Shown here in pieces: positions 23,960 to 64,000 of a stretch of 64,000 nucleotides of DNA; position 1 is the first letter of the stretch, and each line of letters begins with the position of its first letter. The notes beneath the pieces were generated by a model, which saw nothing but the letters and a program-made list of their open reading frames with translations, was not told where the DNA came from and searched no databases. Source of the stretch: Strigamia acuminata (lineage: Eukaryota); NCBI GenBank assembly GCA_949358305.1, contig OX442314.1, positions 26,102,001 to 26,166,000 of the forward strand, written 5' to 3'. Made by a program: the position numbers and the translations under genes.

Positions 23960-25769
23960 TTAAACTATATTAATTATTTATTTATAATTATATAATGAAA
24001 TATACTTTTTATAATTATTATAATAAATCAAAATTTAAACTTAAAATACACTTAAAAATTCATTGCATTTCTATTTCTATCTTTGAACGCAGCTAGTGAA
24101 AGGTTTAAACTACCGTATATTATCGATTACTACTAAGCCTCTAATAGCCCGCGGACCTCGAATTGCGCGTGGGGCAAATTTTATTTTTGCCAATAACGCG
24201 CAGGCCTCGAATTGCGCGCGGGTTCACAATTGAAGGCCTGAAATGTGCCAAAAAAAGATGACAAATGACACGTTTTGCATACGTTTCGACAGAAAATTAC
24301 CGAAACGTATGGAAAACGTCTCAATTGTCACATTTTTTGGTGTTTTTCGTTGCCGATCCGTTCATTTATCCTTTAATAGCGCGCGGGTCAAAATATTTTT
24401 TACAAATTTACAAATATACGATAGTTTAAATGTAAATTTTAGACAGCCATTTGAACAACAATAAAGTTGTGTACAATCTGTTTCTGCCTACTTTTTTCGG
24501 CATTCATAAAGTCATTTAAACTTGTTCATATTTTTTTAAACCAGTGTTTTTAAAATTGTGTTTTTTTTAACTTGTTCCGTAGTTTAAACTTAGTTTTCTA
24601 AGTGGTCGGCTTCTTGTACGACAAACTGACAAACCATTTTTTAAACATGGAAAAGCATGTCCTTCTTTGAGGACCAGCTTGAGACATTCAACACCACTCT
24701 GTGACTTGTGCCATATCTACTTCGTGCTGTTTATTAAATATCAACACCACCACCACACCAGATGTCACAGTCAAGAGTAGCAATATACGCTCCCCATTGA
24801 AACCTCAACTTTCCTGCAATACCTTGGGAAGCAAATATAAATTAAGAACTCACTCAAATAACAACTGCTAACTCTTAAGTACCAACTCCTCATATTCTAG
24901 TTGGATGGAAAAACCTCAGACTCTTGTTAATTTTAGCTGTAGAAATGTGACAGCACGGCAGTACACTTAGAGATTAACTCGTTTATTATAAAGGTGAAAG
25001 TGAGTGGTCATTTCGTGACCCACTTTTCAACTTTTCTGCGAATTGCCAATACCGTTAGTACTTTTTGATGACTTCATTTTTTATAGGTTTATTTATTACG
25101 CTACAAATCTTCATTATAACAAAATTTGAGCCTTGCGGTTTGGGTTGACCATAGGTCACTTTTCATAACCTCGTGGTCGTGGATTTTGAATGCACCCTAT
25201 GTTTCAGATTGCAAATATCAATAGAATGCTAAATCAATTGAAGATTGCCACAAACGTCACACCATGTGCTAATTCATTCAGAGTTGCTCATGTATGTAGA
25301 ATACTTGTGAATTCAGTGGTCGACCACTGAGTAAATTATAGAGATTACGCCATTGTAGGCAGACAAAAGTTTGTACAATATTGATCTCAAAAAGGAATCT
25401 CGGTCAAAACAATTTTAGTAATGCGTTTCTTTATACAAATAAAAAAAAAAAAAAAAATGCTCAATCAATTTAGAATTTGCTTCTTCGTGTAAGAGTTAGC
25501 AAGACAATATAAACGACTCGATTCATTTCGTCTCCGATCTTTCGTCGCCTTAATATTTTTTGGACTTCAGAATAGTTAAACAATCCCCTGCTCAGTTTGC
25601 ACTCACCACACCTTAATTGGAATACTGTACGGTAGAACCTCGATTATCCGAACTAATTGTGTACATGGGTGTTCATAAAACCAAATTGTTCGGATAATCG
25701 AACATTAGATTTATACACATACTGTACTGCATATGAAAATAAAGTCATTGAAACATAGTTAGAAACCAT

Positions 25770-26045
25770 ATTAAAACCGACCAAAAATGGATAGAAATTG
25801 TCAAAAAACATTAAAAACCGATTAAAAATATGTGAAAATCGTCAAAAAACATTAAAAACCGATTAAAAATATGTGAAAATTGTCAAAAAACATTAAAAAC
25901 CGATTAAAAATATGTGAAAATTGTCAAAAAACATTAAAAACCGATTAAAAATATGTGAAAATCGTCAAAAAATATTAAAAACCGATTAAAAATATGTGAA
26001 AATCGTCAAAAAACATTAAAAATAAATTAAGAAACCGATAAAAAT
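25770..26045. repeat. 41-bp tandem repeat inside a family A MITE
   Basis: ATTAAAAACCGATTAAAAATATGTGAAAAT[CT]GTCAAAAAAC, about 6 units. Confidence 0.92.
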
Positions 26046-26161
26046 CGATAAAAAATCGCTTGATCGTTGTTCGGATAACCGAAGGTTCGTATAATCGGTG
26101 ACGAAATGATCCGCCACCGAGACAAGCAGTTCCAAAAGCTGTTTAAATATTGTTTATATTT

Positions 26162-31122: not shown

Positions 31123-33584
31123 TTAAAAAAAAAGGCCGAAAAACCGAACGGCTAAAGCACATTGAACACGACGAGAATTAATTCGAAACAGATGCAACTT
31201 GGCTAAATTTAGTTCCAGCACACGCAACCCCTTGGCGTGTCAATACAATTTGTACGTGATGAAGAGTCAACGGCATTTTTATGTTCACTTTATGAGCAGT
31301 GACTTTACTTCAAGAACTTTAAACAAGAAGCAATGACTAATTCTCACAGCACACGCAAACTAACAAAACAATCACACTATTAAAAATTGCTCGATAGATT
31401 TTTGTTGGAATTCTTCGATAGACTTCATCACGATTTCGATTCACTTTCTCGACAACAAAAAGTGTCTTATTTTTTGTCTGCCAAGAATGTTTTCATTAAT
31501 CAAGAACAAAAGTTAGAGGTTCAAAGAAGATCGGACCCAGCACCTTATGCCAAAATCAAACTGACGAATTCCTGCCTGCACATACAGTAGTGTGTCCGAA
31601 CATCGGTCATTCGAACGACCGGTTAACCAAACAGCAATGATCAATGAATAATCGACTTTTTATTCGATTTTTTTATTTCGTTTTTAATTTTTTGGATGGG
31701 CATAAAGCTAATGATTATGTACAATATAATGTCCAATTATGCAAACAAATCGGTTTTATGAACACCCATGACCCCTGATCAGTTCGAATAATCAACGTTC
31801 TACTGAATTTGATTTTTCGAAATACAATTAGGGAAAAATGGCACTATTCACTTGTGTGTAATAAAAAATTTTAGACTTTCGTGTTTTCCTGTGCAAAAAA
31901 ATGGTATTTAATGCATGAATTTAGCATTAAGATCTCGAGCCCAGTAGGTGCATTTCCAAACATTCATTCCGTTGTCCCAGTTTTACATGTATTTTCGCTT
32001 CTGCAGTAACTGATGTGACACTTACGAATGCAATTATGAATGCACTCATCAAGTTTTCGGTCAGTTGGATACTAACATTTAAATCAGTTAAATCAATTAA
32101 CTCGATGCCAAATTCAAACTGTGCGTCACATTCTGCTTAATTGTCAAGCTTGTTGCACAACGAAAATAAAGCAATAATATTTCGGCACCATGCTGTAATG
32201 AGCATACCATATATCTTCCAATAGCGCCCCGTGCGCTATTTGCCAAATTATTTTTTTTACTCCGCGCGCAATTGGAGACTCGCGCGGTATTAGAGGCCGT
32301 GGGTTATTATTTATATATTGCGCACAAAATTATACAAGTAAATCGTTAAGAAAAAAGTGAATTGAAAATTTTCAATTCTGAATTCGCTGAATGCATTGTG
32401 AACAGAAACTTCGCTCAAAAATTAAATTTCGCAACATTGTAAACTAGCCTTTAGGCTTAATACCGCTAAACAACGACAAAAATTAGGAAATCATCTGTGC
32501 AGAATGTGATGTGCAGAATAAATTTGGCATCAAGATCCCCGGCGCAAACTAGATTGGCGAATCGAGTTGTTTGGCACACAGATCTAGATCGGATAATCGA
32601 GATCAGTGTTGACCCCAAGCATGGCTCTAACAAGTGCAAACAGTTAATAACAATTGTATTCAACTGCAGCAGTGACAAATAACAACACTTATGTAACAAA
32701 TATATGCAGACTCATCATTCTATCTATAAAAATCTGCAGACAAAAATAAATCATCACAAACCAAATTGGATTGCAGAAAATAAATGCAGATACAATGCAG
32801 CAAAACATGTCATTATAAAAAGATTTCCAACTCCAACCGTCAATTTACACGTGAAACCAACCCCAGAAAGCATGCCATTGCAATCTGTCCAATCACCTCT
32901 CGTATTGATTTTTCATGCAGAGGGAAAGAGCATTTATCTAATGCACACGCCATCCATGTCATTCAATAATCTGTTATTTATTTATCTTTTTACCTGCATT
33001 CATATTCATATCGGAAGTAAGGTAAGAACAGAAACACCAGCACACAAAATCGATTTTTCCCACCTCTGTGTCATCATATCCGGGGCTGCCTTTGCTCTAC
33101 TCAACTGTCTTCATTCTTCAACATCACGTCAATTTGCACTGCAAGTTACTGGAGCAATTCAAAATTGCACGTTTGCCTTTATTAATCCGGCCGTGTTGTT
33201 ATTTTCCAATTTCATACCTGCGTTCAAGATGTAAACACCCGAGAAATGCAGTCTCATTCCGAAATTAATTAACAACGTCCTCGAGTTTTTAATGCGGAAT
33301 AAATTGATAATCATCAATTTGTTGCCATGTAGGCTTGCCGTCAGTGTTTTTGAGAATAACAACTTCTCGGTCCTTGCAAAGTATAATGCAGTTGCTTATA
33401 TCTGTCGTATCACAAAACGATTTAATTCGTATAATACGATTGTAAATCCTCCAAAAGCACTAGTTTACATTTGTCACACTGAGGCGCACGGGTCGTGTCG
33501 CCCATAGAGGGCTAACTCGAGGGGCCAACAATCTAGCAAATCCTCGTGCACTCTTTGTGATTTGCAAATCGGCAAATTTAATGC

Positions 33585-34150
33585 AAATCAGCTGCAAATA
33601 CAACTAATCAACTGCAAATCCATTCAATCAGTTGCAAATTCAATAAATCAGTTGCAAATTCAGTAAATCACCAGCAAATTCAGTAAATCACCAGCAAATT
33701 CAGTAAATCACCAGCAAATTCAGTAAATCACCAGCAAATTCAGTAAATCACCAGTTATTTCAGTAAATCACCAGTTATTTCAGTAAATCACCAGTTATTT
33801 CAGTAAATCACCAGTTATTTCAGTAAATCACCAGTTATTTCAGTAAATCACCAGTTATTTCAGTAAATCACCAGTTATTTCAGTAAATCACCAGTTATTT
33901 CAGTAAATCACCAGTTATTTTAGTAAATCACCAGTTATTTCAGTAAATCACCAGTTATTTCAGTAAATCACCAGTTATTTCAGTAAATCACCAGTTATTT
34001 CAGTAAATCACCAGTATATTCAGTAAATGACTAGCAAATTCAGTAAATCACCAGCAACTTCTGTAAATCATTAGCAAATTCAGTAAAATCACCAGCAAAT
34101 TCAATAAATTAGCTGCACATTCATTAAATTAGCTGCAAATTCAATAAATT
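33585..34150. repeat. 20-bp minisatellite (CAGTAAATCACCAGTTATTT / ...GCAAATT), over 20 units
   Basis: Direct reading: homogeneous core 33661-34020 with degenerate flanks. Confidence 0.97.
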
Positions 34151-36755: not shown

Positions 36756-38914
36756 TTTGTAATAGTAAGACTAGCGTATTTTAATTGTCATTTAAATTCT
36801 TTTTAATAAAACACCAAAGTGATACGTATATGAAATAGAAGTTTTAAATACACTGACAATCTTACTTCAAATTTACTTGCTACCGTCTTCCCCTGAAAAT
36901 AACACCATGGTGTTGTATTCGAGTTTCTTGTGAAACATTGTTGAAAAAATTGAATGTAACACCACTTCAGCTGTAACACCATGGTGTTATATTCGAATAC
37001 AACACCAAGGTCTTATTTTCGGAGGAAGGTGGCAGTACAGCCAATGATAATGCTTGATCAGCATGAAGGTGGTACGGCTTCAACATAGTGACACTATCCC
37101 AAAGTTAGCTATTCCAACCTTGTTGCTGCATGGCAAAAAGTTCAATGCAGCAAAACTCCAAGACCGAGAACCAGGCACCCCTCTCCACCTGGCAAAACCA
37201 TTCTAGTGGTACAAGGACCACAATTGCCTTTCTCTGGACCAGGCAAACTTAAACATGACCAAAACATTACTCTTTTTTCTATTCTACTAGTGATGGAACA
37301 ATGTGCAACAGTGAAATTTTGTTTCCTAATGCAGCCTTTTGTTGAAAAAAATCAGTTTGTGCGCCCACAGATGCCGCCCCTAGAAATATGCCTCCTCACC
37401 CCTCGCCCCGGCCCTGTGACATCCCTCTAGACCGAGTGCTTTCTCCCGCACCCGCCTAATGCCCATTCTAAAGCGGTTATAGTCATTTTAGCAACGCTCA
37501 TTTTAGCAATTTTTACCAAAAAAGTCCCATTTTAGCGAACATGTCATTTTAGGTTTTTGTGTCGCGACACGATTTACCGTGACAAACCGGCTCAAAAAAG
37601 TGGTTTTCATCAAAAAACCAGTAAGGTTAAGTTCGCGGGTTGTTAGCCCTTCTTGGGAATTAAACCTAGGTTTTTGTGTCGCTAAAATGACATGTTCGCT
37701 AAAATGGTGTTTCGCTAAAATAAAATCGCTAAAATGAAATCGCTAAAATGAAGTACATCCTTCTAAAGTTCACTGTACTGTTCTTTAAGGTTTGAAATTC
37801 CTCAAGAAAGGAGTGACCAGCCTGTGAGAAAGGCTTACTTTCTGAACTTTCCTCCTACTGGGAATTAGACTAATGAAGCGAGAAGTATGACAATCGGAAA
37901 TTCTAGTGAGAAGATTCGACACAATGTTAGATGAACCAAGCTGTAACTAATGGAAAATTCAGAACTTTCCCCTTTTTTGTTTCCTTAATTATAGTGTAAA
38001 TCCCGTCATAATTATAAGGAAAAACTTGATGCAGCAACAAAACATTCAATGACAACTTCCATTCACTCACTTTGGCATCCACAAAGCAAATAATAAAACT
38101 TTGAATAACCGTCTGTCAGTCAAGCAGTGCCAGAGTCGATGTAATGAATAACCGCGGCCGAATCTATTTAATTATTTACTCCCGCTTTAATCTTCCAATA
38201 GTAATTTAAATACAAAATCCTGCGAAATTTTGCACCTGTCTATTATTGCCTCACTTCCCATTCACTTCAACAGTAATTTACCTTAACACAACAGCATTTT
38301 CCCTTTAATTCTATTATTCACGTGCTTAGGTTTGTTCAAAGAACAAGTTTCTACTTAAGATGGTCGAAAAGAAGCAACAGAAATAAAAAAAAAATAAAAA
38401 AAAAATAAAAAAAATTTAAAAATAAAATAAAATAAAGGAACGTTTAGTGAAGCGTTGTTTCTGCGAAGATTCTCTTTTCACACGGTCGAATGAAGGCGAG
38501 TTTGAGGAGGAGGCGACCGGTGAAGATTCGCAATGACCACCGAGCCCAATATCCCATTTCGGAGTCTGAGACCTCCAAACCACTCGGGCCATGACCGCTC
38601 AAATTACCCATAACTCCACTTTCACCACTACCGACGCCATAAATCGACACTAGAACCAATTGACAACCATCTAATTCAATATTTCAAGTGTATACTTGGT
38701 TGGCCCTATCAAATTAATAGATAAGAGCAAAATTTATTTTGCTTTCAAAACCGTTAATAAATTGTGTTTATGGATTTCACACTAGGAAATTGTTTTAGTG
38801 GCTGCAATCAAAAGTTGTCTTTAAACATTTTTCCCCCGTTGTAAATCTACCGTAAATGCTCTAGGTTGAGCGGGGGATGCCGATTGAACCTGTATAACAC
38901 GACTGAAAAGTGCC

Positions 38915-39135
38915 CAAAATGCACTTTTTAGGGTACAAAATGCACTTTTTAGTGTACAAAATGCACTTTTTGTGTGCAAAAATGCAGTTTTATGTGCAAA
39001 AATGCAGTTTTATGTGCAAAAATGCAGTTGTATGTGCAAAAATGCACTTTTATGTGCAAAAATGCAGTTTTATGTGCAAAAATGCACTTCTATGTGCAAA
39101 AATGCACTTTTATGTGCAAAAATATACTTTTTGTG
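38915..39135. repeat. 21/20-bp minisatellite (AAAAATGCA[CG]TTTTATGTGC)
   Basis: About 10 tandem units. Confidence 0.92.
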
Positions 39136-40085
39136 ATTGAAAACCTATATTAATTATAGCTTAAACATTTCGGTTAAGTTAGGGGAATCTAGGTTCTGTC
39201 AATAGAGCGCGGGTGTTCCACGAGAGCATTCACGGTATAAATCTTCTTAAATTTTTCAAAAAATCTTCTCGAGTGCAATTCAAATTAGAGAGCACAAAGT
39301 GGCTGCTTTGATGACAGGTCCAAAACACAAATTCGTCTAAAACACTTCTGGTTGTTTGCTAAAATGCTACATTTTCAAGTGTTTGTGTTTTGGCATGTTT
39401 TAAGATCGTAAACCCAAACAAAAATAAAAATAAGTAAAAACATTTCTGAATGCAGCTAGTGTTTTATACAGTTTCTAGTTTCAACTTTTATGTTATGTTG
39501 AAAGAAATTAAATCCTGTTTTTTTTTTTTTTTTTTTTTTTTTTACTAGAAATTAATGAAACGCGCAATGTCTTGTAGCGTTTTAATGTCAGAAATATTAA
39601 GTAGCTGCGAAAGTCATTAATTCACAGAGTTCAACATTACTCATTAATTATTAGGATAATAAATTAGAAACTTTTCTAAAATTTTCATAAAAATTTATTT
39701 ATTTCCATTTTTTAAACTTCGATGGAAGTGGATAATATTAACCCTCACCTAGCACCGACTTAAAAATAAAATTTCTTTCTCACCCAAAGAAAATTTACTG
39801 TTTGATTCCTCCAATTTTATGTTGAAATTGAACTACCTTTTTTATTACTGGCAAGACAATGAGAAAAATATTGAACATTGAATTCCAAGGCGATGAGCAA
39901 TAAATAGTACAATACCAGCAACAAAACGATTTAAATGTTCGATTCTTTTTTATTGCTTGTTAAGAAAAAATACATGAATTTTCAGATCGAAAAACAACAG
40001 ATAAAAACAATTTTCTAGGTCAAAATTGATCCTTGGTCGATTATGCAAGGGTTAACCCAGCGAAAAAGTTTGACGATGCTAAAGT

Positions 40086-49593: not shown

Positions 49594-52593
49594 TCAAGAT
49601 TCAGACGAACTAGTCCACCTCATCAACGCAACTTTCATTCGATCGTAAACAGCTTCCCACGAATCCAGAGCGGGTCTTACGTCGAGGATGGTAAAATGAC
49701 CAGTTTCTACGTTAACTGGTCCTCCGTCGTAATAATCGATCACGTATCGCACTTCTTTGCCACAACGATCGATGACCCAGTCGTGTCGATCAAACGGCAG
49801 CTCATACCTAATAAAAAATAAATAAAATTGATAAATAAGTACACAAATAATTAACAGGAGCATTCATAAAGTCTTAACTCGCAATTAGACAATTTTTGTG
49901 GTTTAAATGTCCACTATACAACTGAAAACAGACTAAATCGGCCGCCATGTTTTAAGTTACCGTATATACTCGCATGTAATGCAAACTTGTAGTTTTCTAA
50001 GAAATAAGCTCGAAAATGGCATGTCCACTTATAATGCAAACTTTTAATCTTGTTCCGTAACATTCTTAATAATGCAAAACAAATTAGCGAAAGGAAAATT
50101 TATCTATTTAAAATAAAACGTAAAATGTTGGCTCATTTTCAGGTTTATTTATCGAATAACTGTATTAATATCCACATACAGTCGAAACTCTTTATACCGA
50201 ATCGCAAAGGACTCGAAAAATTGATTCGTTATTACGAGAATTCGTTATCTCAAAATTTTTCAACATTTTTAGGTATTCGTTACATCGATAATTCGTTAAT
50301 TGCGATTCGTTATAGAGAGTTACGACTGTATATCCATATTTGAGCACTACGTGTAATGCAACCCCCTAACTTTAATGCGAGTATATACGGTAGATCGCGA
50401 TAAGCGATTGAAATTTGTTGCTTAAACATAAAAATGCTGTTTAGTCTAGATGACTTTATGAATGCTTCTAGTTCAAACGACAAATCGGGATAAATTACCC
50501 CAACCAGGATCGGATTCTGGCCCTGGGCGAGTATTCCTTCGCTTTTCCGCCAAATCTCTTGAGTTGTGGTGACATGCATTCCCTGGAATTGAATTTTAGA
50601 AATTAATATAAAATTTTATTTCACTTTTTAATTTATTTCTGTTTTTTATCAATTTGTGCTCTGCCACGCTGCAAGTATTCGGAATTTGTTTTATACCACC
50701 CGTTGGAATTCTCCATTTCATATTTCAATGGAGGATACATGGCATTAATTAAAGACGATCGATTAAACAAAACTGTGGAGACGTATTATGATAATTTGGC
50801 ACTTGGTGCGGAACATAAATAAGGAGCCTCGAGGTGCAATGGCCATTGAGTACGTGGCAGATTTTTCCTCGAAATAAATGATGCATTTTTAGGCATAAAA
50901 CTGTCCGAAATAGCTGCAAAAATGTACAATTTAAAACAAAACAAAATTCATTTTAGAAGAAATTCTTTCAGTATTAAAACAAATTTTTAAAAAATTTAAA
51001 TTTTTGGCATAAAAATCTATTTTTAAGCGCAGAAACAGCCTGTTTAGGTGTCTAAATGCATCAGTTGTTGACAAAAATGTATCTTTGCAGCCATAATAAA
51101 TCGGACTCTACTGAAATTGCATTTTCTAGTTGCAAAATTGCATTTACTACCATAGTTGCAAAAATGCATTTACTAGATGTAAAAATGCATTTACTAGTTG
51201 TAAAAATGCATTTACTAGTTGTAAAAATGCATTTACTAGTTGTAAAAATGCATTTATTAATTGAAAAAAATGCATTTATTACTTGAAAAATGCATTTGTT
51301 GCAATTTATTACATTTTTTAGTTGCAAATAATGTACCTGAAAGTACAAATAAGCTCAAGGGACAATAAAATAAAATAAAATATCATTAATAAACAAACAT
51401 TTGATATTTTCCCGTCTGCCCAAAAAGCGCCACAGCAGCAACTGCCAGAGACACATTGGTCATTTGCCTGATCAACACGAATGATGCCACTGTTTAACTC
51501 CTCACCTGCAACGAGCATGCTTCAAACTAAACCTCAATTCCTTATCAGAAGCAAGACCGTCGAAAATTATAAACACAGCGAACTAATTTCGCTCATTTAA
51601 AACAAAACGTCAAAACAATTCCCACAGGTCTCCCATTTTTGTACGTAAATGTGACGCTTTAGCAATAATATTATTTAAAAAACATGCCTCATTCATGTCT
51701 GAATAATATTAAAATTCAGCGAATTTAAAATACCAAATAAATTTTCCTTTTCATTAATTAAATAATCATAAATTTCTTTCTGACAAAAAAACAAATTTCA
51801 GACAAAAATGAATCACACTCGACACATTGCAAAACAATCTAACAAAATTAACGAAAACGAAACGTTAAAACACCACTAATCCTCCGAAAACATCATCAAA
51901 ATTGCCAAACCAAACCACCAAAATCGTGAATATTAACTTTGCATGAAGCGCCTCCCATTTCAAGACTTCTCTCCACGCCAATTCATTATTCACGTTGTGT
52001 ATTCGAACGATGTGCGCCATGTCATCCGGAGTAATATCGCTCGTTTGCCAGCGCCAACCTTTTCGCAACATTGCATTCCAAAACATCTATAAAAAATAAA
52101 AAAAAAATCACCCATCAACACCCGATTTTTATCCACAACAATATTTACCTGTTGCGAAGGATATACCCACGTGTCATCAGTTCCTGCTCTAGGAATATTC
52201 GACACTTCTCGTTCCACGGGTAAAGTAAACGGTTGTCCGGGACTGGGTCGTTGGTTTGGCGCCGGCATCTAAAAAAAAATAAAAAATGTAAAATTAAAAA
52301 TTAATTTTTTAGTAAAATAATTTTCTCGATTTATTCTGTGCGATTGATATTACCATGTTGGAGAGGTTGATGTCATCACCCGATTCTAATTGTTGTCCTT
52401 TGGCCATGTGGATGGGGCATCCGCTCGGTACTTGCCCACTGGATTCGTATTGTTGGAAGGATTTGTTCATGGGACATTGCGATGCTGCGTGTTTTTGAGG
52501 TTGAGTTGGTTTTGAATCGTTTGGTTTTATACCGTGAATTATATCGGTAGCTGTAGAATGAGCTGTTGCAGCCGTCGAAACGTTCGCTCCCAT
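49594..52593 (-). CDS. HCCS: Holocytochrome c-type synthase (cytochrome c heme lyase), 5 coding exons: 52354-52593, 52149-52268, 51938-52086, 50499-50582, 49594-49807; 807 nt, 268 aa
   Basis: Spliced translation gives the family motifs [93 protein letters not shown] and LDVRPALDS. All four introns are GT..AG with compatible phases (0,0,2,2). AATAAA on the minus strand at 49276-49281. Confidence 0.97.
49960..50390. mobile_element. MITE in the last HCCS intron, with a nested family B MITE (50179-50328)
   Basis: Perfect 16-bp TIR CCGTATATACTCGCAT with TA flanks. Confidence 0.85.
51110..51330. repeat. 21-bp minisatellite (AAAAATGCATTTACTAGTTGT) in HCCS intron 3
   Basis: Tandem units read directly. 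Confidence 0.92.
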
Positions 52594-53601: not shown

Positions 53602-54114
53602 CTAGTGATAAAATTGAATAAGTTCTAATTTAACTTGGTTTTTATTTTTAAAATTTTAATTTTGTTTTTAATGGATCAATTAAAGACTTAAAAACTGGCT
53701 TTAATGATTTATAAACTTTATTTAATCATTAAGAAACGTGATTTAGTGATTTAGAACTTGATTTAAAAGATTTAAAAAGTGCATTTTGAAGAAATGATTT
53801 AGAAACGGCACTTGATGATTTTGTTGCTTCAATGACTCTGAAACAGCATTTTTCCTATTTTAAATTTAGCCACTGCATCTGTTTATTTTTATGTAAACAA
53901 GTTACAGGCGTCGACTTCCGCATTCGGCATGCATTATTTACATTACGGCGTGACATCTAGTGTTTTAATACTCAATTACCTGTATTGTAAATCCCACTTC
54001 TCTGACCTAGATAAAAGAACGAATTTGAAACTAATAATAATAACAATAATAACGCCATCCAAAAAATCAAATAAAAAATGCAGCCCAGTTAGCCCAATGG
54101 TAAAGATGGCCCTG

Positions 54115-54378
54115 GCAACCGGAAGTAACCGCGGATACGACGAACTAGTCCCACACCACGTAACGAAATAAATTCTAAAAAAAAATGATTTTAATTGAAT
54201 TTTGACTGATTTTTAACTCTAAAAGATCCACGTCGTGAACGAAATTCGAATGTACCCATCGTGGCTCGACGAACCAAACCCGGACCGGAAGTTCATGAGC
54301 TCAAAAACCGGCATCGTTGCAGGAAAACGTGCCCTAAATCTGTTGCATAGCGAGTTGGGACGGAGCGGCTTTAACCAA
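54115..54378 (+). pseudogene. AGL: Orphan two-exon fragment of glycogen debranching enzyme (exons ~54115-54159 and 54226-54378)
   Basis: Spliced peptide [28 protein letters not shown]...[25 protein letters not shown]| matches the conserved AGL segment recalled as SGSTRGYDELVPHQISVV.E.R.Y..W...SGII.A..A...LH.ELG..GF.Q. 66-nt GT-AG phase-0 intron. No flanking AGL exons recognised. Confidence 0.8.
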
Positions 54379-54755
54379 GTAAATTAGGGAAAATGTAATT
54401 TTTGACGTAAAGCGGCGTGCAGGCGTGACATACCCTATATTTCCTCCTTTTCGAGTGAAAATGCGGTCTATCGGGACTAAAATCCATGAAATGTTCAAAA
54501 CAAAAGTTGATTTTCTAGATGAGTGTTTTGAAGATGTCATGGATTTTAGTCTATCGCTGAACGACGTGTTATTCCACGCGCGATATGCCGTTGCGCGACG
54601 TCGCACTCGGTCATACGCGCAGTAGTTGCAACTGCGACGCCGCGCGTAGACGTGTTATCAGTATTTCCTGGTGCACAATAATGATTTCAACAACAAAACC
54701 TCATGCTAGTATACTGCTATTCGCGTCACGTTTGGACAATGTATTCTATGGACTG

Positions 54756-54864
54756 TGCTTTTGGTGATCGTAGATGATCCCGGGATCCAGATCTTGTTCT
54801 AGTTTATGTTCGGGCTCGGTTTGTTGAAAATGTGATTCGTACTTGTGGCGCTAATTTTAAATCA
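54756..54864. repeat. Direct duplicate of HCCS 5' leader (52596-52722)
   Basis: tgcttttggtgatcg..gatgatc.cgggatcc.ga.cttgttctagtttatgttcgggctcggtttgttgaaaa..gtacttgtggcgctaattttaaatca is present at both sites. The distal copy has an internal deletion of ~18 nt. Confidence 0.92.
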
Positions 54865-55780
54865 TGTGTCGTATGGCAACTGTTGGCTGCTCATACATTT
54901 CTGTGGGGCAACTGTTGGCCATCCATACATCTCTGTGGGACACTTCAGTGAGGCACTTTGATTGGTCAGCCTCGTTTTGAACATTCAGATACCTGCTGTG
55001 ACACCTGTGATGTGACTAAGTGATGAGTCACCAATTCCAGGAATACATGGAACCAATCGGCAAAAGGGATTAAGCAGAGGAGGAGCTTGGTGAGTCATCA
55101 ACTCTCTGTTAAGCATGGAAAATGGCATTGGTGATGACACTATTGGGATTAACAAGGGTGGGAACTAACATTCCTGCACTTGTGAAAGAGATAGTGGAAA
55201 CACAGTGTGTGCAGAACAAGTTTGCAGTTAGATGTTGTCTTGACCAGTTCACCCAGAGAGCAGTTCCAAGCAGCCCAGACCAAGCAGTAGAAGTTAGGCC
55301 ACTTCAACCTGTTCCAAGCCAATTCTAAAGACCAACTAGAATTATGGATCCAGAGAAGACCTTCCTGAAACTTCAAGGAACCTTGGCTAAGAATCCAGAA
55401 TGCCACATCTAAGTAGAACATTGGAACATTCAGGGAGAAGCAGTGTGAAGTGTGTGTCTTTGTGTGTGAAGCAGACAAAGGAAAAGATCTGTGAGTACCA
55501 AATTTGCCACCATTTGCAATTTTTCTGTTTCTTGAATGTGTTAGATTTAACCAATGTTAGCTTTGTGTATTTGTAGTTTAGTTAGTATGGTATTATGTCT
55601 TGTAATTACATATACCATTTGGTAGTATTTGATAGTATTGTGTTAGGAATTTTGGTGTGAACCAGCCTTTTGTATAAAGGCAAATTAAATAAACTTTTGT
55701 TCTTTTCTATTTTCAACTTTCAATGTGTTTGCTTTATTTGAATCTAATTTCCACCGAGCCAAAGAACCCACTTTGCCACA
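54865..55780 (+). repeat. 5' LTR (~915 bp; start at 54865 or 54867)
   Basis: Begins TGT where similarity to the HCCS-leader duplicate stops. Ends ...GCCACA one base before the PBS. Contains CCAAT boxes, two TGAGTCA, AATAAA at ~55688 and a ~32-bp tandem duplication near its start. Boundary cannot be confirmed without the 3' LTR. Confidence 0.8.
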
Positions 55781-55781
55781 A

Positions 55782-55793
55782 TGGTGCCGTGAC
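55782..55793 (+). promoter_or_regulatory. Primer-binding site complementary to tRNA-His 3' end
   Basis: TGGTGCCGTGAC is the reverse complement of GUCACGGCA-CCA, the 3' end of animal tRNA-His(GUG). It lies 1 nt after the LTR-terminal CA. Confidence 0.9.
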
Positions 55794-56591
55794 ATTGGAA
55801 CTGATTGTTAAAGTAAAATTTTCTTTTTGATAAATTTTAGGGTTAAAAATTGAAAATTTAGGGGTCAAAATTGCTAATTTTTGAATAATGAGTTTTCTTT
55901 TATGCTATTTTTGGCCAGGGTTGGATTTTAATATGTTAAATCAACTAGTTTCAATCAGTATGGTTCCGAAATTGGAAAATAAATTTGGCAAAAATTCTTC
56001 AACTTTTGGGGTAAAAAGTGTGGTTTAAAAACCAAGTTATTTTGTTGGAATTTCCAAGAAACTGGAATTCCTTTGTGTTATATTTTACCCAGCAGATGCT
56101 CTATTGTCTTGTGAGCTGTTGAGGAATTTGAAAAATATTGAAAGGATTATGAACAGGATACAGCTGCACCTGTTCAAACACCTGTTTGCATGACTCATAG
56201 ATAGTGCATTGGAATTTGGCACAGTTAAGATTTTGTTAAGAATAATTTTTTTTGGATTTTAATTGGGTTAAAATATTTTTGGGAATGCATTTAGAGAGTC
56301 TTTGATTTTTGGAAGTTGAGATTTTGGAGGGAAATTTTAAATTTTGAATAGAATTTTTTTTTTGAATTTTAACTTTGGAATTCTTTTGAATTCTTGATTT
56401 TGTTTGGTGGTTTGGCACAGTATTGGAATAATTTAAGTACAATTCTGTTGTTATAAACTACTGTTTCTATTGGTTGTACTAGCCTTTGTTGCTAAGATAC
56501 CAAAGTAAGTTTAGGCATTTCCTGTGTGCATTTATTGCTAGAAAGAGATTTGATTTCATTTTTTTTCCCAACTTTTGTTCATTCATTCAAC

Positions 56592-57572
56592 ATGGCTGAA
56601 GAGAAGGGAGAAATAACACCTTCAATGATGCAGAGCCTAGTGCCCAAGTTCTCAGGCAATGGGAAAGGTGCCAAGGTAGAAGGCTTCATAAAGAATGCCA
56701 AGGCTGCTGCTAAGCTAGGCAGGTGGAGTGAAAGCTTCACTTGTAGTTTGATGAGATCAAAATTCCACGATGAAGCGAGGGTTTGGGTCGACGAGCATAC
56801 ACTAGCTATGGACTGTGAGATAGTGGCCGACTTGGAGAAGATGTTATTGGCGAGGTTCGGAGTCAGAGAAACAAGACACGCCAAGTTTGATAAGTTTAGC
56901 CAGGCTACCCAAAAGAAAGGGGAGTCGGCTACAACTTTTGCCTCAAGGATCAAGGGGCTTTGGGAACTTTGTTTTGAAGAAGGGGAAAAAGCGGGTGAGC
57001 GCGACGATTTTCAACTGCAGTCGAGGTTCATTGCGGGACTCACTGGTGAACTATCCAAACAAGTCATTTTGGCTGAGGACTTTGACACCTTTGACGAATG
57101 TGTGGCCTGGGCAGCAAAGCAGGAGCTGGGACTCTCATTCTATTCTAGTAGAGGGAACTCAGGGCTTGCTAAGTTGGAATTGGCAAGTGCAACGCCAAAA
57201 CCCAAAACTGAGGAACCGGACAAGCTAGATGGCATTTTGAAGGCAATTAGGGAACTCACAGTAGCAATGCAGCAGAAACAAACTGCACATGTAAGCAATG
57301 TAGGAAATTCTTCTAGTACATGTTTTAAATGCGGGAAAGAGGGTCATTGGAGTAAGGACTGCAAAGTTCAGAAACAAGACTGGAAATGTAGTTCATGTGG
57401 TGGAAAGGGTCATAATAGCTTTAGATGTGCCAACAATGAAAGTAGGCAGCAGAATTTTAAGCCTAGGTATGAGAAAAAGCCATGGACTAGAGGGCCACAC
57501 ATGGAAAAGAAGGGCGACTCAGAGGAAAAAGAAAAGAGTCAGCCAAAACAGGAAGATCCTCCGTTAAAATAG
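56592..57572 (+). CDS. gag: Gag (capsid plus two CCHC zinc knuckles), 326 aa
   Basis: caacATGG start; VPKFSG..., Q..GES...FA.R major-homology-like region, RFIAGL; knuckles CFKCGKEGHWSKDC and CSSCGGKGHNSFRC. Confidence 0.93.
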   Translation: MAEEKGEITPSMMQSLVPKFSGNGKGAKVEGFIKNAKAAAKLGRWSESFTCSLMRSKFHDEARVWVDEHTLAMDCEIVADLEKMLLARFGVRETRHAKFDKFSQATQKKGESATTFASRIKGLWELCFEEGEKAGERDDFQLQSRFIAGLTGELSKQVILAEDFDTFDECVAWAAKQELGLSFYSSRGNSGLAKLELASATPKPKTEEPDKLDGILKAIRELTVAMQQKQTAHVSNVGNSSSTCFKCGKEGHWSKDCKVQKQDWKCSSCGGKGHNSFRCANNESRQQNFKPRYEKKPWTRGPHMEKKGDSEEKEKSQPKQEDPPLK

Positions 57573-57611
57573 AAGGGCAGATGGGACAAGGACCAAGTCC
57601 CATCACAGCCC
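57563..57611 (+). promoter_or_regulatory. Putative -1 programmed ribosomal frameshift signal (G_UUA_AAA plus hairpin)
   Basis: pol is in the -1 frame and open from 57491. The heptamer GTTAAAA directly precedes the gag TAG. After a 5-nt spacer comes GGGC-A-GATGGGAC-(9 nt)-GTCCCATC-ACA-GCCC. Confidence 0.75.
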
Positions 57612-60600
57612 AAATCGTGGTAAAAACGGGTCTAGAGGATTTTGAGAGTTATGGAGTAGAGAAATTGGAAGATGATGACAGTTTGCAACCAGAGGAATGG
57701 CAACAGATTTTTGAGACTTTTGGTTCATCCATAGGGACATTGGTACAGGAGGGGGAAACTGAGATGAACAGAAGGGAAAACACGCCGAATTTACAGGACA
57801 TTCCCCGCCATCTCGACCTCTGTAAAATGGAAAAGGGAGAAGACACGCCTAATGAAGGGGACATTCTCATTCACTGTGATCTCTATGAGGGGGAATTATT
57901 GGAAGCAGAAGTTAACTATTATTCTGAGGTTGTAGATGTCAAGGTGGAAGATTCAGTATTGGGAATAAGTGACACGCCAAAGGGTACACAGGTCACCGAC
58001 TTCTCAGCACAATGGGTCGACCAGCAGATACAGGACGGAGAATTTGAGCGCACTGTTAATTACGATCACATAGTAGACACAACGCAATGGGTTAAGCAGT
58101 GGCCATATTTTCTGCATATGTTTTTCCTGTATAGTGTAGTATTTGCAGTGGTGATTGCTGAACTTTCCGCAGGATTTTTGGTCAGGGTGGGATCCAAGAT
58201 AGGACTCACAGCCAGAAATCTCTGTTTAGTATGGTTTTATTCACTCCAGGGCCTAGTGATGCAAGGGACAAGATTTTTGTCAGCAGCTGGGAAAATGAGG
58301 GAATTAGGGAAGTCACAAGTCAACCATTGGAATACATTGGGAACTAGATTTTGGTTCAAATTAAGGTTTTTAGTCGTAAGGGTAGGGCGACCTTTGGTGC
58401 ATTTCGCAATTGTTAGTCGGAAGGTATCAAGGAAGTTCTATAAAAGGGTGGCTCAGATATTGGGATCCCTAAGCACAGGAAGTGCAACGACATTGAGGCT
58501 TTTAGTCGTAAGAGTTGGACGAGCTTTGGTGCAATTCGCAATTGTAAGTCGGAAGGTATCAGGGAAGTTCTATAACAGGGTGGCTCAGATATTGGGATCC
58601 CTAAGCACAGGAAGTGCAACGACTTTAAAGTTTTTGGTCAAAAGAATGGGACAAACTTGGAAGCATTTCGCAATTGTAAGTCGGAAGGTGGCAAGGAGGT
58701 TCTATAAAAGGGTGGGACGAACTAGGGTGCATTTCGCAATTGTAAGTCGGAAGGCGTCAAGGGGGTTCTACAAAAAGTTGAAAACTCTAGGTATAGCCAA
58801 TGTTAAGGCAATAAATGGGTGGGTGAGTGGAGTTCAGATAATACACCAGGTTGGTGGGTTAAAGGCCCTGAAGATTAATTCCGGCATTCATCCGTATTGG
58901 ATTTCAACAAGCTTAAAGGAAGTGGGACGAACTGTGGTGCAATTCACAAGACAAAGATGGAGGGCATCAAGGGGGTTCTACAATAGTTGGAAGGATTTAG
59001 GTATGGTCAGTGCAAAGATCTTAGATGAGGGGAAGTACAGAAATCAGATAATACACCAAGTGGGTGGGTTAAAGGCCCTGAAGTACAAGGAGCAGATAAT
59101 ACACCAGGTTGGTGGGTTAAAGGCCCTGCGAATTAGTCCCATTACTCATCTGTATTGGATTGCAGCGAGCATAGGAGAAGTGGAAGTCAAATTGATGATA
59201 GACACAGGAGCCTCTGCTAGCTTGCTAGCTATTGGAGTGTGGCAAGAGTTGCTTAGGAATAATGTAGCCTATGAGGAGGATAAGATCGATTGTGTTTTAG
59301 TGGGTGCAACGGGAGATGACGTACAACTAATTAAAAAAGTCAGGTTACACATCACAGTCGGAGACACAAGCGTTCATCATTGGATTTACATTTACACCAC
59401 CACCACGGAGAACAGAGCAATGTTGAGTGGGATAATGGGGTTGGACTTAATGCAACAATTCAAGGCAAAGATTGACACGGAAACTCACATAATAAATTTT
59501 CCAGACTCAACTATACCTGTACACACATTAGCTAATGTAACATATCGGAGGGGTAAACCTAAAGAAAGTAGTTTTCCCCAAGTGCAAAAGAGTTGCGATG
59601 AGTTCCTGTTGGCACTACAAAATAAAACTAGTGTTGAAGGGGAATTGCCATGGCAACAAATCCCAAGGGAACTGGTATTAAATGTGGAAAATTGGTGGGA
59701 CAACCAAAAAGGGGGCGATTCATTTTTTAATTATATAGAGGAGATGGACTCGCTAATACAGGCTAACCCTTTTAAAATGGGAGAAATAGATGGGTATTCA
59801 ATCACGTCTGTTAACCCACCAAAGACCGCCATTGCAGTAGATAATTTCAAACTGGACCATTTGACAGAATTGAACAAGTTGCTAGTTGAGGAATTAATAA
59901 CTGAATATATTGATGTGTTTGCAATGGACATTTTTGGGTTGGGATGTACGGATAAGATGGAACACCGGATACACCTAACTGATGATGTACCAGTGTGTAA
60001 GCGACCTTACACAGTGCCAGCGGCACAAGTTCAGGTTTTACAAGGATTGATTGATCAATTACTGGAGGCAGGAATTATTGAGCATAGTAATTCACCTTAT
60101 GCAGCACCGTGCATGTTGGTCAATGCACCAGGCAAAGCACCACGCTTGGTAATTGATTATAGAGGGTTAAATGTGAAGATCGTATCAGATCAATATCCAC
60201 TACTGTTGATTGAAATCTTACTGTCACAATTAGGGGACGGGAGGATCTTCTCTTCAATGGATTGTAGCAACGGATTTTGGCAGGTACCCGTAGCAGTGGG
60301 AGATCGAGGCAAAACAGCTTTCATCACTCCTTTTGGGTTGTACCAATGGACAAGGGTACCCATGGGGTTAAAAACCTCACCTGCAGGATTTCAGCGGTTG
60401 TTAAGCAAAACCTTAGATGGTATAAGGAATAGTGGAGTATTTGTAGATGATGTATTGGGGTGGACAGCTATATTTTTAGAGCATCCATCACTATTGCGTC
60501 AGATTTTTCAACGGTTCAGAGAGTCCAAGTTAAAGCTGAAGCCGCCAAAATGTCAATTGGGGGTAACAGAGGTTACATATTTGGGACATGTAATTGGGGA

Positions 60601-62890
60601 AGGAACAATTAGACCGATTGAATCTAAAGTCCAAGCCTTGGAAAAGTGTCGAGCACCAAAGAATGTGCCAGAAGTACGGAGTTATTTGGGGATGACGGGT
60701 TACTATAGACGGTTCATAAAGAATTTTTCAACTATAGCTTCACCCCTTACCAATTTACTCAAGAAGGATACAGTGTTCGACTGGGGAGAAGCCCAACAGT
60801 TAGCCTATGAGACATTAAAAGGACAGCTGATTAAGGGGCCGATCTTGATTTTGCCAGACTGGAAAGAGAAGTTTTTTTTAGAAACAGATGCTAGTGGACA
60901 GGGGTTAGGAGCTATTTTACAACAACAGGTAAATGGTAGAATGCACCCCGTAGCATTTGCGAGTCGGAGGTTAAACAAAGCAGAACAATGTTACCCCGCA
61001 GTGCATTTGGAAGCGATGGGATGTGTGTTCGGTGTAAAGCATTTCACCTACTACTTGATGGGCAGAAAATTTACGCTTATCACGGATCACGCACCTCTCA
61101 CCTTCCTTTTGCAAAACTCGCATGCGAAAGCACAGTTTACTAGATGGAGTATGAAACTCCAAGAATACGACTACGACATTGTATACAAGCCAGGGCCCCA
61201 GAACAAAGCGGATTTTCTATCACGGTTGTTACCACCGGATAGCGAGGGCGAAATGAATAAAGTTAATGTTCTCAACACGAGGGATATGTCATTGATTGAT
61301 TGGTGTCCAGAAAGGATAGCGGAAGCCCAATTGGCTGACCCTAAGTTAGAATTTCTAATTGAAGCCGCTAGAGGCAGGACAGCGCAGTTTAAAAGTAAAT
61401 TTCCGACCTGGGACTCCTATTATTTGACAGATGATGACATGCTTTATTTGGCTAGAAGTATACATGGGGAAGTAATTTCGATTTTAGTCGTGCCAGAAAC
61501 CATGGTACCGGCAGTGCTAGTGCACGAACACAACCGGGAAGGAGCGGGTCATTTTGGCATCGAGAAAATGTTTGAAACTATTAGACAGAAGTACTATTGG
61601 CCGGGCATTTACAAAGACATAAAGCAGCATGTCAAGTCATGTGACCAATGCAATGCAAGAAAGGGACCAACAGCGAAGGCCCCGATTCAGATGTTCCAGC
61701 CAGTGGGAGTACCATTAGAGCGAATGGGTTGTGATATTTTGGGTCCTTTGAAAATAACTGAGAGAGGCAACCAGTTCATTATCGTGGCAGTTGACTATTT
61801 CAGCAAATGGCCAGAAGCCATGCCCCTGAAAGATCAGAGAGCTGAAACAATTGTTGCGGCATTGGATGTAATGCTTATTCAACGTTATGGACCAATGAAA
61901 ACAGTCTTAACAGACCAAGGAACCCCATTTATGTCTGCAGTTTTTAATGATTGGTGCAAAAGTTTGGGTGTAGAGCACGTCAACACCACCTCTTACAGGC
62001 CCCAGTGTAATGGGCAGGTTGAAAGATTCAATGCAACAATAGCTGCTGCATTGTCACATCTTTTGACAGAGGGACACGGGGATTGGGATTTGCAAATTGG
62101 CAAAGTATTGATGGCATATAGATTTGCGGTTCACAAAGTAACAGGGCACACACCAGTGTTTTTGTTTACATCGCGTGATCCATTTGGAACAATAGATATG
62201 TTCACTAGAGATAATTCCAGCTCTGTCAGATACATTGCACACCGCAGTGAGGCAATGCAGAATACATTTGGAAGGGTTAGGAAAGCGTTGAATGATTTTG
62301 CTGAGCACCAGCAATTGCAAAGTTTGTCCAAATCAAGGGATAAACAGATAGAAGTAGGAGATTTGGTTTATCTAAAGCATGTGAGGATCAAGCCAGGTGA
62401 CATAAGAAAATTGGCACAACCACATCAGGGTCCATTCAGGGTAATTACAAAAATCAATGATGTGAATTATCGGATTAGACTGATGGAGGATCCTTCAAAG
62501 GAACAGACAGTTCATGTGGATAGACTAAATAAGATAATGGAGCCAAGGATATATCCATATTTGGAATTTGAAAATGAAGAAGCGGAAGCATCTGGGGAGA
62601 GTGAAATACACTCAGAGTCGGATTCTGATGCCGAATTAAACTGGGAAGAGGAAAGAATTTCCCAGAAGAAATGCGCGAGGCAAACAAAAAGGCCGCATGT
62701 AGAGGAAGAATTAGTCGAAGTAGAGGAAGCACAAGGCAATGAGCAATTGGTCGACATACAGACTCAGCCATTGACTGAAAATAAGTTTGGTGGGGGCAGA
62801 TATCCGCAACGAAATAGGGAACCCACACGACAGTTCAACGAGTATCACTTGACTAAAATATTGTGGAAAATTTTCGGGGAAAAAGAGTAG
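57581..62890 (+). CDS. pol: Pol polyprotein (long N-terminal insert, aspartic protease, RT, RNase H, integrase with GPY/F); probably expressed as Gag-Pol
   Basis: LMIDTGASAS (aa ~541); SPYAAP..RLVIDYRGLN, GFWQVP, KTAFITPFGLYQWTRVPMGL, FVDD, YLGHVI; ETDASGQGLGAIL, ADFLSR; H..GHFG..C..C, D..GP, VDYFSKW, TDQG, NGQVERFN; GPFRV; acidic tail. Confidence 0.97.
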   Translation: MGQGPSPITAQIVVKTGLEDFESYGVEKLEDDDSLQPEEWQQIFETFGSSIGTLVQEGETEMNRRENTPNLQDIPRHLDLCKMEKGEDTPNEGDILIHCDLYEGELLEAEVNYYSEVVDVKVEDSVLGISDTPKGTQVTDFSAQWVDQQIQDGEFERTVNYDHIVDTTQWVKQWPYFLHMFFLYSVVFAVVIAELSAGFLVRVGSKIGLTARNLCLVWFYSLQGLVMQGTRFLSAAGKMRELGKSQVNHWNTLGTRFWFKLRFLVVRVGRPLVHFAIVSRKVSRKFYKRVAQILGSLSTGSATTLRLLVVRVGRALVQFAIVSRKVSGKFYNRVAQILGSLSTGSATTLKFLVKRMGQTWKHFAIVSRKVARRFYKRVGRTRVHFAIVSRKASRGFYKKLKTLGIANVKAINGWVSGVQIIHQVGGLKALKINSGIHPYWISTSLKEVGRTVVQFTRQRWRASRGFYNSWKDLGMVSAKILDEGKYRNQIIHQVGGLKALKYKEQIIHQVGGLKALRISPITHLYWIAASIGEVEVKLMIDTGASASLLAIGVWQELLRNNVAYEEDKIDCVLVGATGDDVQLIKKVRLHITVGDTSVHHWIYIYTTTTENRAMLSGIMGLDLMQQFKAKIDTETHIINFPDSTIPVHTLANVTYRRGKPKESSFPQVQKSCDEFLLALQNKTSVEGELPWQQIPRELVLNVENWWDNQKGGDSFFNYIEEMDSLIQANPFKMGEIDGYSITSVNPPKTAIAVDNFKLDHLTELNKLLVEELITEYIDVFAMDIFGLGCTDKMEHRIHLTDDVPVCKRPYTVPAAQVQVLQGLIDQLLEAGIIEHSNSPYAAPCMLVNAPGKAPRLVIDYRGLNVKIVSDQYPLLLIEILLSQLGDGRIFSSMDCSNGFWQVPVAVGDRGKTAFITPFGLYQWTRVPMGLKTSPAGFQRLLSKTLDGIRNSGVFVDDVLGWTAIFLEHPSLLRQIFQRFRESKLKLKPPKCQLGVTEVTYLGHVIGEGTIRPIESKVQALEKCRAPKNVPEVRSYLGMTGYYRRFIKNFSTIASPLTNLLKKDTVFDWGEAQQLAYETLKGQLIKGPILILPDWKEKFFLETDASGQGLGAILQQQVNGRMHPVAFASRRLNKAEQCYPAVHLEAMGCVFGVKHFTYYLMGRKFTLITDHAPLTFLLQNSHAKAQFTRWSMKLQEYDYDIVYKPGPQNKADFLSRLLPPDSEGEMNKVNVLNTRDMSLIDWCPERIAEAQLADPKLEFLIEAARGRTAQFKSKFPTWDSYYLTDDDMLYLARSIHGEVISILVVPETMVPAVLVHEHNREGAGHFGIEKMFETIRQKYYWPGIYKDIKQHVKSCDQCNARKGPTAKAPIQMFQPVGVPLERMGCDILGPLKITERGNQFIIVAVDYFSKWPEAMPLKDQRAETIVAALDVMLIQRYGPMKTVLTDQGTPFMSAVFNDWCKSLGVEHVNTTSYRPQCNGQVERFNATIAAALSHLLTEGHGDWDLQIGKVLMAYRFAVHKVTGHTPVFLFTSRDPFGTIDMFTRDNSSSVRYIAHRSEAMQNTFGRVRKALNDFAEHQQLQSLSKSRDKQIEVGDLVYLKHVRIKPGDIRKLAQPHQGPFRVITKINDVNYRIRLMEDPSKEQTVHVDRLNKIMEPRIYPYLEFENEEAEASGESEIHSESDSDAELNWEEERISQKKCARQTKRPHVEEELVEVEEAQGNEQLVDIQTQPLTENKFGGGRYPQRNREPTRQFNEYHLTKILWKIFGEKE

Positions 62891-63388
62891 ACAATAGTCC
62901 AAAATTGTTGACTAAGAATTCGGAAAAATTCGGGTGTTATTGAAGAAATTAATTGTGAGGATGGTTTAAAAATTTTTCTCCTCCCTCTCCATTTTTTTTT
63001 TAAAAATTAATTTTGTAATTAGGATTTGGATAACGGATTATATGTGTATAAATCTTTTCGTATAAATAGGAATGAAGTTGTTTTGTCAAATGGGGCGAGA
63101 AAGAATTTTCTCTCCTCCTTGTTGTGTATATGTCTAGAAATACTATTAATCTTGGTATTAATCTTGGTGTTAATTTTAGTGTTAATTTTAGTGTTAATTT
63201 TGTTCTGGTTAATTTTGGTAGAATTATTTAAAACATTAAAGGATTGCAAATTTTTGGCGATTCGAAATATATGGTTGAGCGAGCATTGACGGAGCAACTA
63301 CGGCAAGAATGTCGTAATGATGATAGGAGTTAGGCACGGAAAAGAGTCTTTTTTTTTGTGTATGATTCGATGTAAATTTTATTCGAAT

Positions 63389-63977
63389 TTATTCAGGTTT
63401 GTTTGGGTTAAGGGAATCTACGAGACAGTCGGGGTCTCGGATCGTCATCTGCTGACGAAAATGCTCCACGAGAGCGGCTACGTCGTCATCGGCGGCAATG
63501 CCGGGCGCGCTGCAAAGGGAAAGGTTGGAATTGGTTAAATTCGAGAGAAGGAAAAATTTGATTTGATTCTACTTACGGGTTGGAGCTGATGGCGTGTTCG
63601 ACCTCGATGGCAGAATACATGTTTAGGACAAATCCGGGCGGGTCCACGAGCTCAATGGTCGGGGAGAGCGGGCGGTAAATCTCGGCCAAAACCTCGAGTT
63701 CGTCATCGGACGATAAGTAGCACAATGACGGAAAGAAGGTATATTCAAAGTAGTCGGGGAGCGGCGGCTCTTCCATGCCGGCAGGCAAGCGGATCGGGCC
63801 AGCCGTGAGGCTGTGGCCATCGACACTCACGTCCATATGGTCAATGTCGCGAGGAAGTCGCTCGTTGTCCGACGATTCGTCGTCGGCATCGTAGGTTGTC
63901 GTCTCGTCACGGGCGCCATCGTCGTCGTGGTTTTTGCGGCATTGTCGGTTCAAGTCAAAATCACGGGGAAAAACCAT
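63389..63977 (-). CDS. Antisense two-exon gene of unknown function (exons 63577-63977+ and 63389-63509; at least 173 aa, acidic and Pro-rich)
   Basis: The ORF-track stop lies inside a CC|GTAAGT donor. A 67-nt intron (63510-63576) ends in tttccctttgcag. The spliced frame continues 39 codons (APGIAADDDVAALVEHFRQQMTIRDPDCLVDSLNPNKPE*), then two AATAAA. Both exons are GC-rich and the intron is AT-rich. The frame stays open to the window edge. Confidence 0.75.
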
Positions 63978-64000
63978 TGTTGGTTGGATTGGCGGCGATG

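Follow-up and report, generated by a model that had tools for sequence, protein, structure and literature searches.

Does a reading frame that lies antisense behind the pol gene of a retrotransposon, and whose stop codon falls inside a splice donor, represent a real gene and, if so, to whom does it belong? The question is raised by the end of the 64-kb stretch of Strigamia acuminata DNA analyzed here (the window), whose last 9 kb are occupied by a Ty3/Gypsy LTR retrotransposon. The original prediction was that of a spliced antisense accessory gene of this element, driven from its 3' side.

The Ty3/Gypsy element and its surroundings

The element displays the order LTR, primer-binding site (PBS), gag and pol, followed by a spacer:

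54865..55780, plus strand: 5' LTR (916 nt, TG...CA ends, CpG observed/expected ratio 0.11)
55782..55793, plus strand: primer-binding site, directly after the LTR
56592..57572, plus strand: gag (Retrotrans_gag and zf-CCHC, uninterrupted)
57491..62890, plus strand: pol frame (1799 codons without a stop)
62891..63377, no strand assigned: AT-rich spacer from the pol stop to the antisense poly(A) signals, without LTR

The edges of the 5' LTR were set by its end motifs and composition, because the window contains no partner LTR, and the PBS presumably pairs with the 3' end of tRNA-His. In pol, an N-terminal part of about 550 aa without assigned family precedes the order PR-RT-RH-IN and an SH3/p58-type C-terminus; RT, RH and IN score above the Pfam cut-off and the protease matches below it. 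The closest relatives of pol that we found, mostly unnamed proteins, are 37-38% identical over the 867 residues searched. The end of gag and the start of the pol frame share about 80 nt (57491-57572) of purine-rich sequence, an arrangement suggestive of a ribosomal frameshift. In the part of pol located before the protease (57491-59160), an acidic stretch and a single membrane-like segment (about aa 203-233) are followed by basic amphipathic repeats of 44 aa (132-nt unit, 2.7 copies) and 70 aa (210-nt spacing). This part has no match in Pfam or the Atlas and a best E-value of 0.39 in PHROGs, and it may serve as a membrane anchor or represent a fusogen-like portion fused to Pol.

The spacer contains a tandem repeat (12-nt unit, 4.8 copies, 63146-63202), and Rfam gave no match across 54000-64000. 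As had been claimed, no LTR separates pol from the antisense frame: the 1.1 kb behind pol are LTR-free, blastn found no second match to the 5' LTR in the window, and the purine runs from pol to the window end are short, the two longest being the pyrimidine tract of the predicted intron (see below) read on the opposite strand.

On the host side, a holocytochrome c synthase (HCCS) gene extends on the minus strand from 52593 to about 50500, with introns of 85 and 62 nt. Its start codon is separated by about 2.3 kb from the beginning of the 5' LTR, which lies upstream and is oriented away from the gene. A 49-residue HCCS exon is 98% identical to a Strigamia maritima protein, the other 119 of the 120 matches listed reaching at most 86%, and the first exon differs from Strigamia maritima at 10 of 80 positions (counted by eye), in keeping with a probable Strigamia-like centipede as host. 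Minisatellites are found at 33505-34144, 38911-39152, 51153-51290 and 25732-26059, with units of 20, 20, 21 and 41 nt, respectively. The core of the element (54865-62500) is CpG-poor, with ratios of 0.0-0.3 in the LTR and leader and mostly 0.3-0.7 in gag-pol, unlike the host flanks where they are mostly near or above 1; this depletion may reflect avoidance of, or erosion by, methylation.

An antisense gene model with a predicted intron

The gene model comprises the following features:

63577..64000, minus strand: upstream coding exon (exon 1), candidate ATG at 63977
63510..63576, minus strand: intron predicted from sequence (67 nt, GT-AG, phase 2)
63389..63509, minus strand: last coding exon (exon 2), 39 codons and the stop
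63378..63393, minus strand: two AATAAA signals beginning at 63393 and 63383, the first overlapping the stop codon

The minus-strand frame is free of stops from 63998 to 63576 (141 codons) and open at the window edge, so that the true start may lie further out. Its first ATG, at 63977 (context ACAATGG), gives 134 aa for the unspliced frame. The length of this frame is a weak argument alone, since 141 codons stay open in 6.5% of 5000 shuffles of 63300-64000. The TAA that closes the unspliced frame (63575-63573) is located inside the donor CCC/GTAAGT, and splicing extends the frame by 39 codons to a TAA at 63391-63389, giving a product of 173 aa counted from ATG 63977. The intron, with 34% GC, ends with a pyrimidine tract and then CAG, while the exons have 56-57% GC. 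In the 54-kb host part of the window, none of the eight minus-strand GTAAGT sites is followed by a strong acceptor within 50-120 nt. Moreover, GC by codon position is 0.64, 0.40 and 0.67, and the minimum at second positions (0.40 in exon 1, 0.38 in exon 2) shifts by the exact register for removal of a 67-nt intron. The antisense gene is thus predicted to be spliced, and all coordinates first given for the frame stopping in its donor, the intron, the 39 further codons and the overlap of TAA with AATAAA proved exact.

Several versions of the gene and selection on its protein

The versions of the region come from contigs of two DNA runs (X1 and X2) of one study, which may be the window's own source. 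Nineteen and 23 contigs were placed on 63330-64000 in the two runs, among which 6 of 19 and 7 of 23 are less than 95% identical to the window. The region exists in at least three versions, three of them overlapping at 63395, 63717 and 63792, and the gene is not single-copy.

The samples are small: 66 differences in total, 40 of them listed, including 36 in exons. Among these 36, 20 are synonymous against 30% expected (p=0.0014), which corresponds to a crude dN/dS of about 0.35; 21 affect third positions and none creates a stop. Leaving out CpG-context changes does not abolish the excess (14 of 24 at third positions, p=0.01). It is observed in both exons, with 15 of 29 listed differences synonymous in exon 1, none creating a stop, and 5 of 7 in exon 2 when read in the spliced register, against 1 of 7 in the unspliced one; the third-position bias, 5 of 7 in exon 2, likewise changes register across the intron. 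The three listed indels all fall outside the exons, two of them, totalling 4 bases, in the intron and the third in the 3' UTR; in a contig spanning the intron, both indel events are inside it. The mirror frames on the plus strand contain 4 and 1 stops.

As a yardstick, the listed differences in pol are synonymous in 9 of 9 cases for RT-IN and in 7 of 19 for the part before the protease, so that constraint on the antisense gene, as judged from these comparisons, is moderate and weaker than on RT-IN. CpG-context transitions are not in excess among copies (12 of 29 versus 34% expected, p=0.27); therefore the gene bears no sign of methylation-driven decay, yet this is no proof of its absence.

Altogether, the synonymous excess, the register shift across the intron and the confinement of indels outside the exons support the view that this is a real multi-copy protein-coding gene, probably kept under purifying selection and lying antisense about 500 nt behind pol. 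The claim that its frame is kept among copies stands for the listed differences, and the original prediction holds for a real, constrained, intron-split and multi-copy gene; for its membership in the element and its 3'-side drive, we can go as far as likely.

Relationship of the gene to the element

The contigs that match the window exactly allow pol and the gene to be compared through their depths, which are not copy numbers and stand here without a single-copy baseline: 172 for pol against 174 and 158 for the gene in X1, 375 and 405 against 373 and 419 in X2. A further exact-match contig (62697-63135, depth 302) joins the end of pol to the spacer, 245 nt of which it covers, and two short ones are shallower (129 and 133; 266 and 167). 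As for the other versions, three of nine depth classes of gene contigs match a listed gag or pol class within 3% in both runs, with a chance of about 5% each, a post hoc comparison in which one of the three was derived by subtraction. In both runs, two diverged gene classes have counterparts among the diverged pol classes; classes near 81-83 (X1) have no partner among the listed core rows, and no contig among those listed joins a diverged gene to a diverged pol.

A separate observation concerns a contig found in both runs that joins the leader (56342) to the spacer behind pol (62973), with 17 letters between. If real, it would represent an internally deleted copy tying the spacer to the element; both places are AT-rich and it may be spurious.

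The gene differs strongly from the element in composition. Its CpG ratio is 1.4, against 0.11 in the LTR, 0.43 in gag and 0.55 in pol, and its GC at third positions (GC3) is 0.67, against 0.47-0.49 in the element core and 0.42-0.53 in two HCCS exons. Among the 128 bins that make up the window, the 500-nt one at 63501-64000 ranks first in both GC and CpG, in line with the claim that the gene is GC-rich beyond pol and host, and GC, GC3 and CpG all change sharply at about 63250. The contrast in CpG and GC3 means that the history or regime of the gene differs from that of the core. This foreign composition fits a cassette acquired later and kept under its own regime and, equally, a different element inserted backwards.

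The gene is probably inside the Gypsy element. Its membership is made likely by the absence of an LTR between pol and the gene and by the continuous depth of exact copies, and it is weakened by the absence from the window of a 3' LTR, PPT and target-site duplication, which would lie beyond its end, and by a CpG content unlike that of the core. The reading that we favor, with a fair degree of confidence, is thus that of a real accessory gene that this Gypsy family carries in its 3' internal region.

On the other hand, the gene could be real yet come from another element, mobile or derived from a virus, that had landed in reverse orientation in the 3' part of the Gypsy copy and would end in the AT-rich spacer. 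The sharp change near 63250 and the gene classes without a listed core partner would be expected in this case, the short tandem repeat of the spacer resembles an element end, and multiple copies under purifying selection fit any active element. However, no transposase, RT or viral family was matched in Pfam, PHROGs or the protein searches, the depth of exact copies shows no step from pol through the spacer to the gene, and the two diverged classes shared with pol would have to be accounted for. We consider such an insertion unlikely, although it deserves to be kept in mind. It is also improbable, to a greater extent, that the gene belongs to a host family specific to the lineage and is merely abutted by a Gypsy copy cut off at its 3' end. 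The intron is of the size of those of HCCS, the CpG ratio is host-like and no 3' LTR is present within the window, but the GC3 of the gene exceeds that of the two HCCS exons, its bin is the richest of the window, and no annotated protein was returned from Strigamia maritima or any other species. Furthermore, the unbroken gag-pol, the 5' LTR and the PBS suggest a young copy, whose 3' end should therefore still be present. Finally, we give very little credit to a gene that would lie inside the element and act mainly via RNA, with convergent transcription or dsRNA tuning the element down and a loosely constrained protein: a dN/dS of about 0.35, looser than RT-IN, and the non-coding antisense RNAs of micropia, for which a parallel has been proposed with additional open reading frames (aORFs) (PMC7264820), would suit it, but the synonymous excess in both exons and the lack of stops and exon indels among the listed differences indicate selection on the protein, and with these poly(A) signals the transcript would end some 490 nt before reaching pol.

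The protein and its possible role

The product is acidic and proline-rich, as had been noticed, with a net charge of -26, 22% D+E, 10% P, 7% K+R and 3 cysteines in 173 aa. It possesses neither a membrane segment (top 19-residue hydropathy 0.84) nor a basic DNA-binding stretch, and short aromatic or hydrophobic motifs are scattered in the acidic background. In the aromatic cluster that follows the LPDY motif, three of the listed differences are synonymous changes at Tyr or Phe codons. Such acidic chains, punctuated by short patches rich in aromatic residues or leucine, are commonly seen in activation domains and adaptors.

The exons were submitted to the databases individually and not as a spliced protein, and the impression that the protein is not recognizable was borne out by sequence, profile and structure-database searches, none of which gave a relative. 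For exon 1, there was no match among 55 candidates of 77-247 aa; three weak matches (E 1.6e-4 to 5.8e-4 against 1.84 billion representatives) were dismissed, all being long repeat proteins. No locus was confirmed for this exon in contigs from metagenomes or viruses, the Atlas gave no usable match and the PDB a single one (E 1.3). Neither exon has a Pfam match at E<=1 or a PHROGs family, and the best tblastn E-value of the two was 3.6 in 91 loci fetched by pol alignment, which are distant (top RT 42% identical). AlphaFold2 run on the single exon-1 sequence gave a pLDDT of 37 and a pTM of 0.18, a low score that could be due to the missing alignment no less than to disorder. Apart from this, 1.8-2.8 kb behind the integrase of three of the distant metagenome Gypsy loci (L037, L044 and L063) lie antisense stop-free frames of 410, 266 and 714 codons, respectively, which have no similarity to the gene and may be neighboring genes or elements.

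Several roles could be set aside. The reading of LPxY and YxxL as late-domain motifs has to be abandoned: about 0.5 YxxL and 0.1 [LP]PxY are expected by chance at this composition; moreover, we are not dealing with a Gag or a membrane-bound protein. The antisense orientation and the absence of a membrane segment both speak against an env or an sORF2/FAST-like fusogen, sORF2 candidates being all in forward orientation in the passages of bioRxiv 2025.03.14.642691 that describe them. Being acidic, almost devoid of basic residues and without any membrane segment, the product is also unlikely to bind DNA.

What would be the benefit for a Gypsy element to carry such a gene? Within our favored reading of an element-borne accessory gene, transcription would start from a promoter on the 3' LTR side and polyadenylation would take place before pol. 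The intron would survive copying, the genomic RNA carrying its reverse, which the spliceosome would not see. The acidic protein could then act in trans on proteins of the host or of the element, as an adaptor or in the manner of an activation domain, and help expression of the element. Strigamia methylates LTR elements wherever they are located (PMC6673714), which would provide a motive for a helper of expression; such methylation is unusual for an arthropod. We put forward this activation-domain-like or adaptor role, in a lineage that methylates LTR elements, as a tentative possibility. A more precise scenario, in which the spliced antisense gene would be the animal counterpart of HBZ or of Grande GENE23 and encode an acidic trans-acting factor that counters silencing by DNA methylation, seems to us rather doubtful.

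Comparison with known systems

HBZ is spliced and contains a bZIP domain. A parallel can be drawn with HBZ and APH-2 of deltaretroviruses, antisense accessory genes driven from the 3' side and thought to be regulatory in the passages of PMC11963269 concerned. The gene studied here would likewise be an antisense accessory gene, with a 3'-side drive that is predicted. Unlike them, it shows no bZIP or basic region, and it is located in an LTR retrotransposon without env seen rather than in a retrovirus; an HBZ-like protein was rejected on the absence of a Pfam match and on the low K+R content (7%).

Closer in host is CopiaMBD from Strigamia maritima, a Copia element with a host-derived domain in sense orientation inside Pol and under purifying selection, as described in passages of PMC6673714 from which the word 'antisense' is absent. 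Both systems concern an LTR element of the same host group that has a supplementary coding part subject to purifying selection. The present one differs by a separate antisense gene of unassigned origin and by belonging to Gypsy and not to Copia.

Our literature search, which was made without most subscription journals, Repbase and supplements, turned up no animal Gypsy element described as having an antisense gene that codes for a protein, nor was any present in the passages considered from PMC13524379, PMC6431247, PMC5408684, PMC8220671 and PMC4402516. The closest layout is that of the antisense aORFs of the plant elements Grande, RIRE2 and Retand and of the fungal Boty. The precedent invoked in the original prediction, that of plant gypsy elements, is correct, and its range is wider since Boty is also concerned (PMC7264820). 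In plants, antisense aORFs located between pol and the 3' LTR (aORF-3R) include maize Grande gene23, rice RIRE2, Silene Retand and bean PvRetro13 (PMC7264820; passages of PMC11963269); Grande GENE23 has its own promoter and a nuclear product (PMC7264820). The gene described here resembles them in being antisense, downstream of pol and without an LTR in between, in having no homologue outside the element family, and in the short tandem repeat of the pol-distal spacer. Its protein sequence is also conserved among copies as far as the listed differences show (20 of 36 synonymous, no stops or exon indels), another feature expected of an aORF-3R. It differs from them by its animal host, by a strongly acidic product where theirs are predicted to bind DNA, by its predicted intron, and by the absence of a 3' LTR from the window. 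As neither exon contains the TRP28 domain (PF04195) of the Retand/Grande protein or any other Pfam domain, and the host is an animal, the gene does not encode a Retand protein. In fungi, the Boty-like (BcGypsy1) elements of Botrytis cinerea carry an extra antisense gene, brtn (PMC7264820; PMC8365987, in the passages that treat it). It is thus another extra antisense gene in a non-plant Ty3/Gypsy element, compared here by description; in contrast to fungal brtn, our animal protein has only 3 cysteines.

The origin and function of antisense aORFs are open questions (PMC7264820; passages of PMC11963269). A constrained and intron-split example from an arthropod would extend the antisense-gene design to animals and add a protein without known relative. 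Since the host group has published methylomes and a retrotransposon that exploits methylation, CopiaMBD, the function of this gene could be tested with types of data that already exist.
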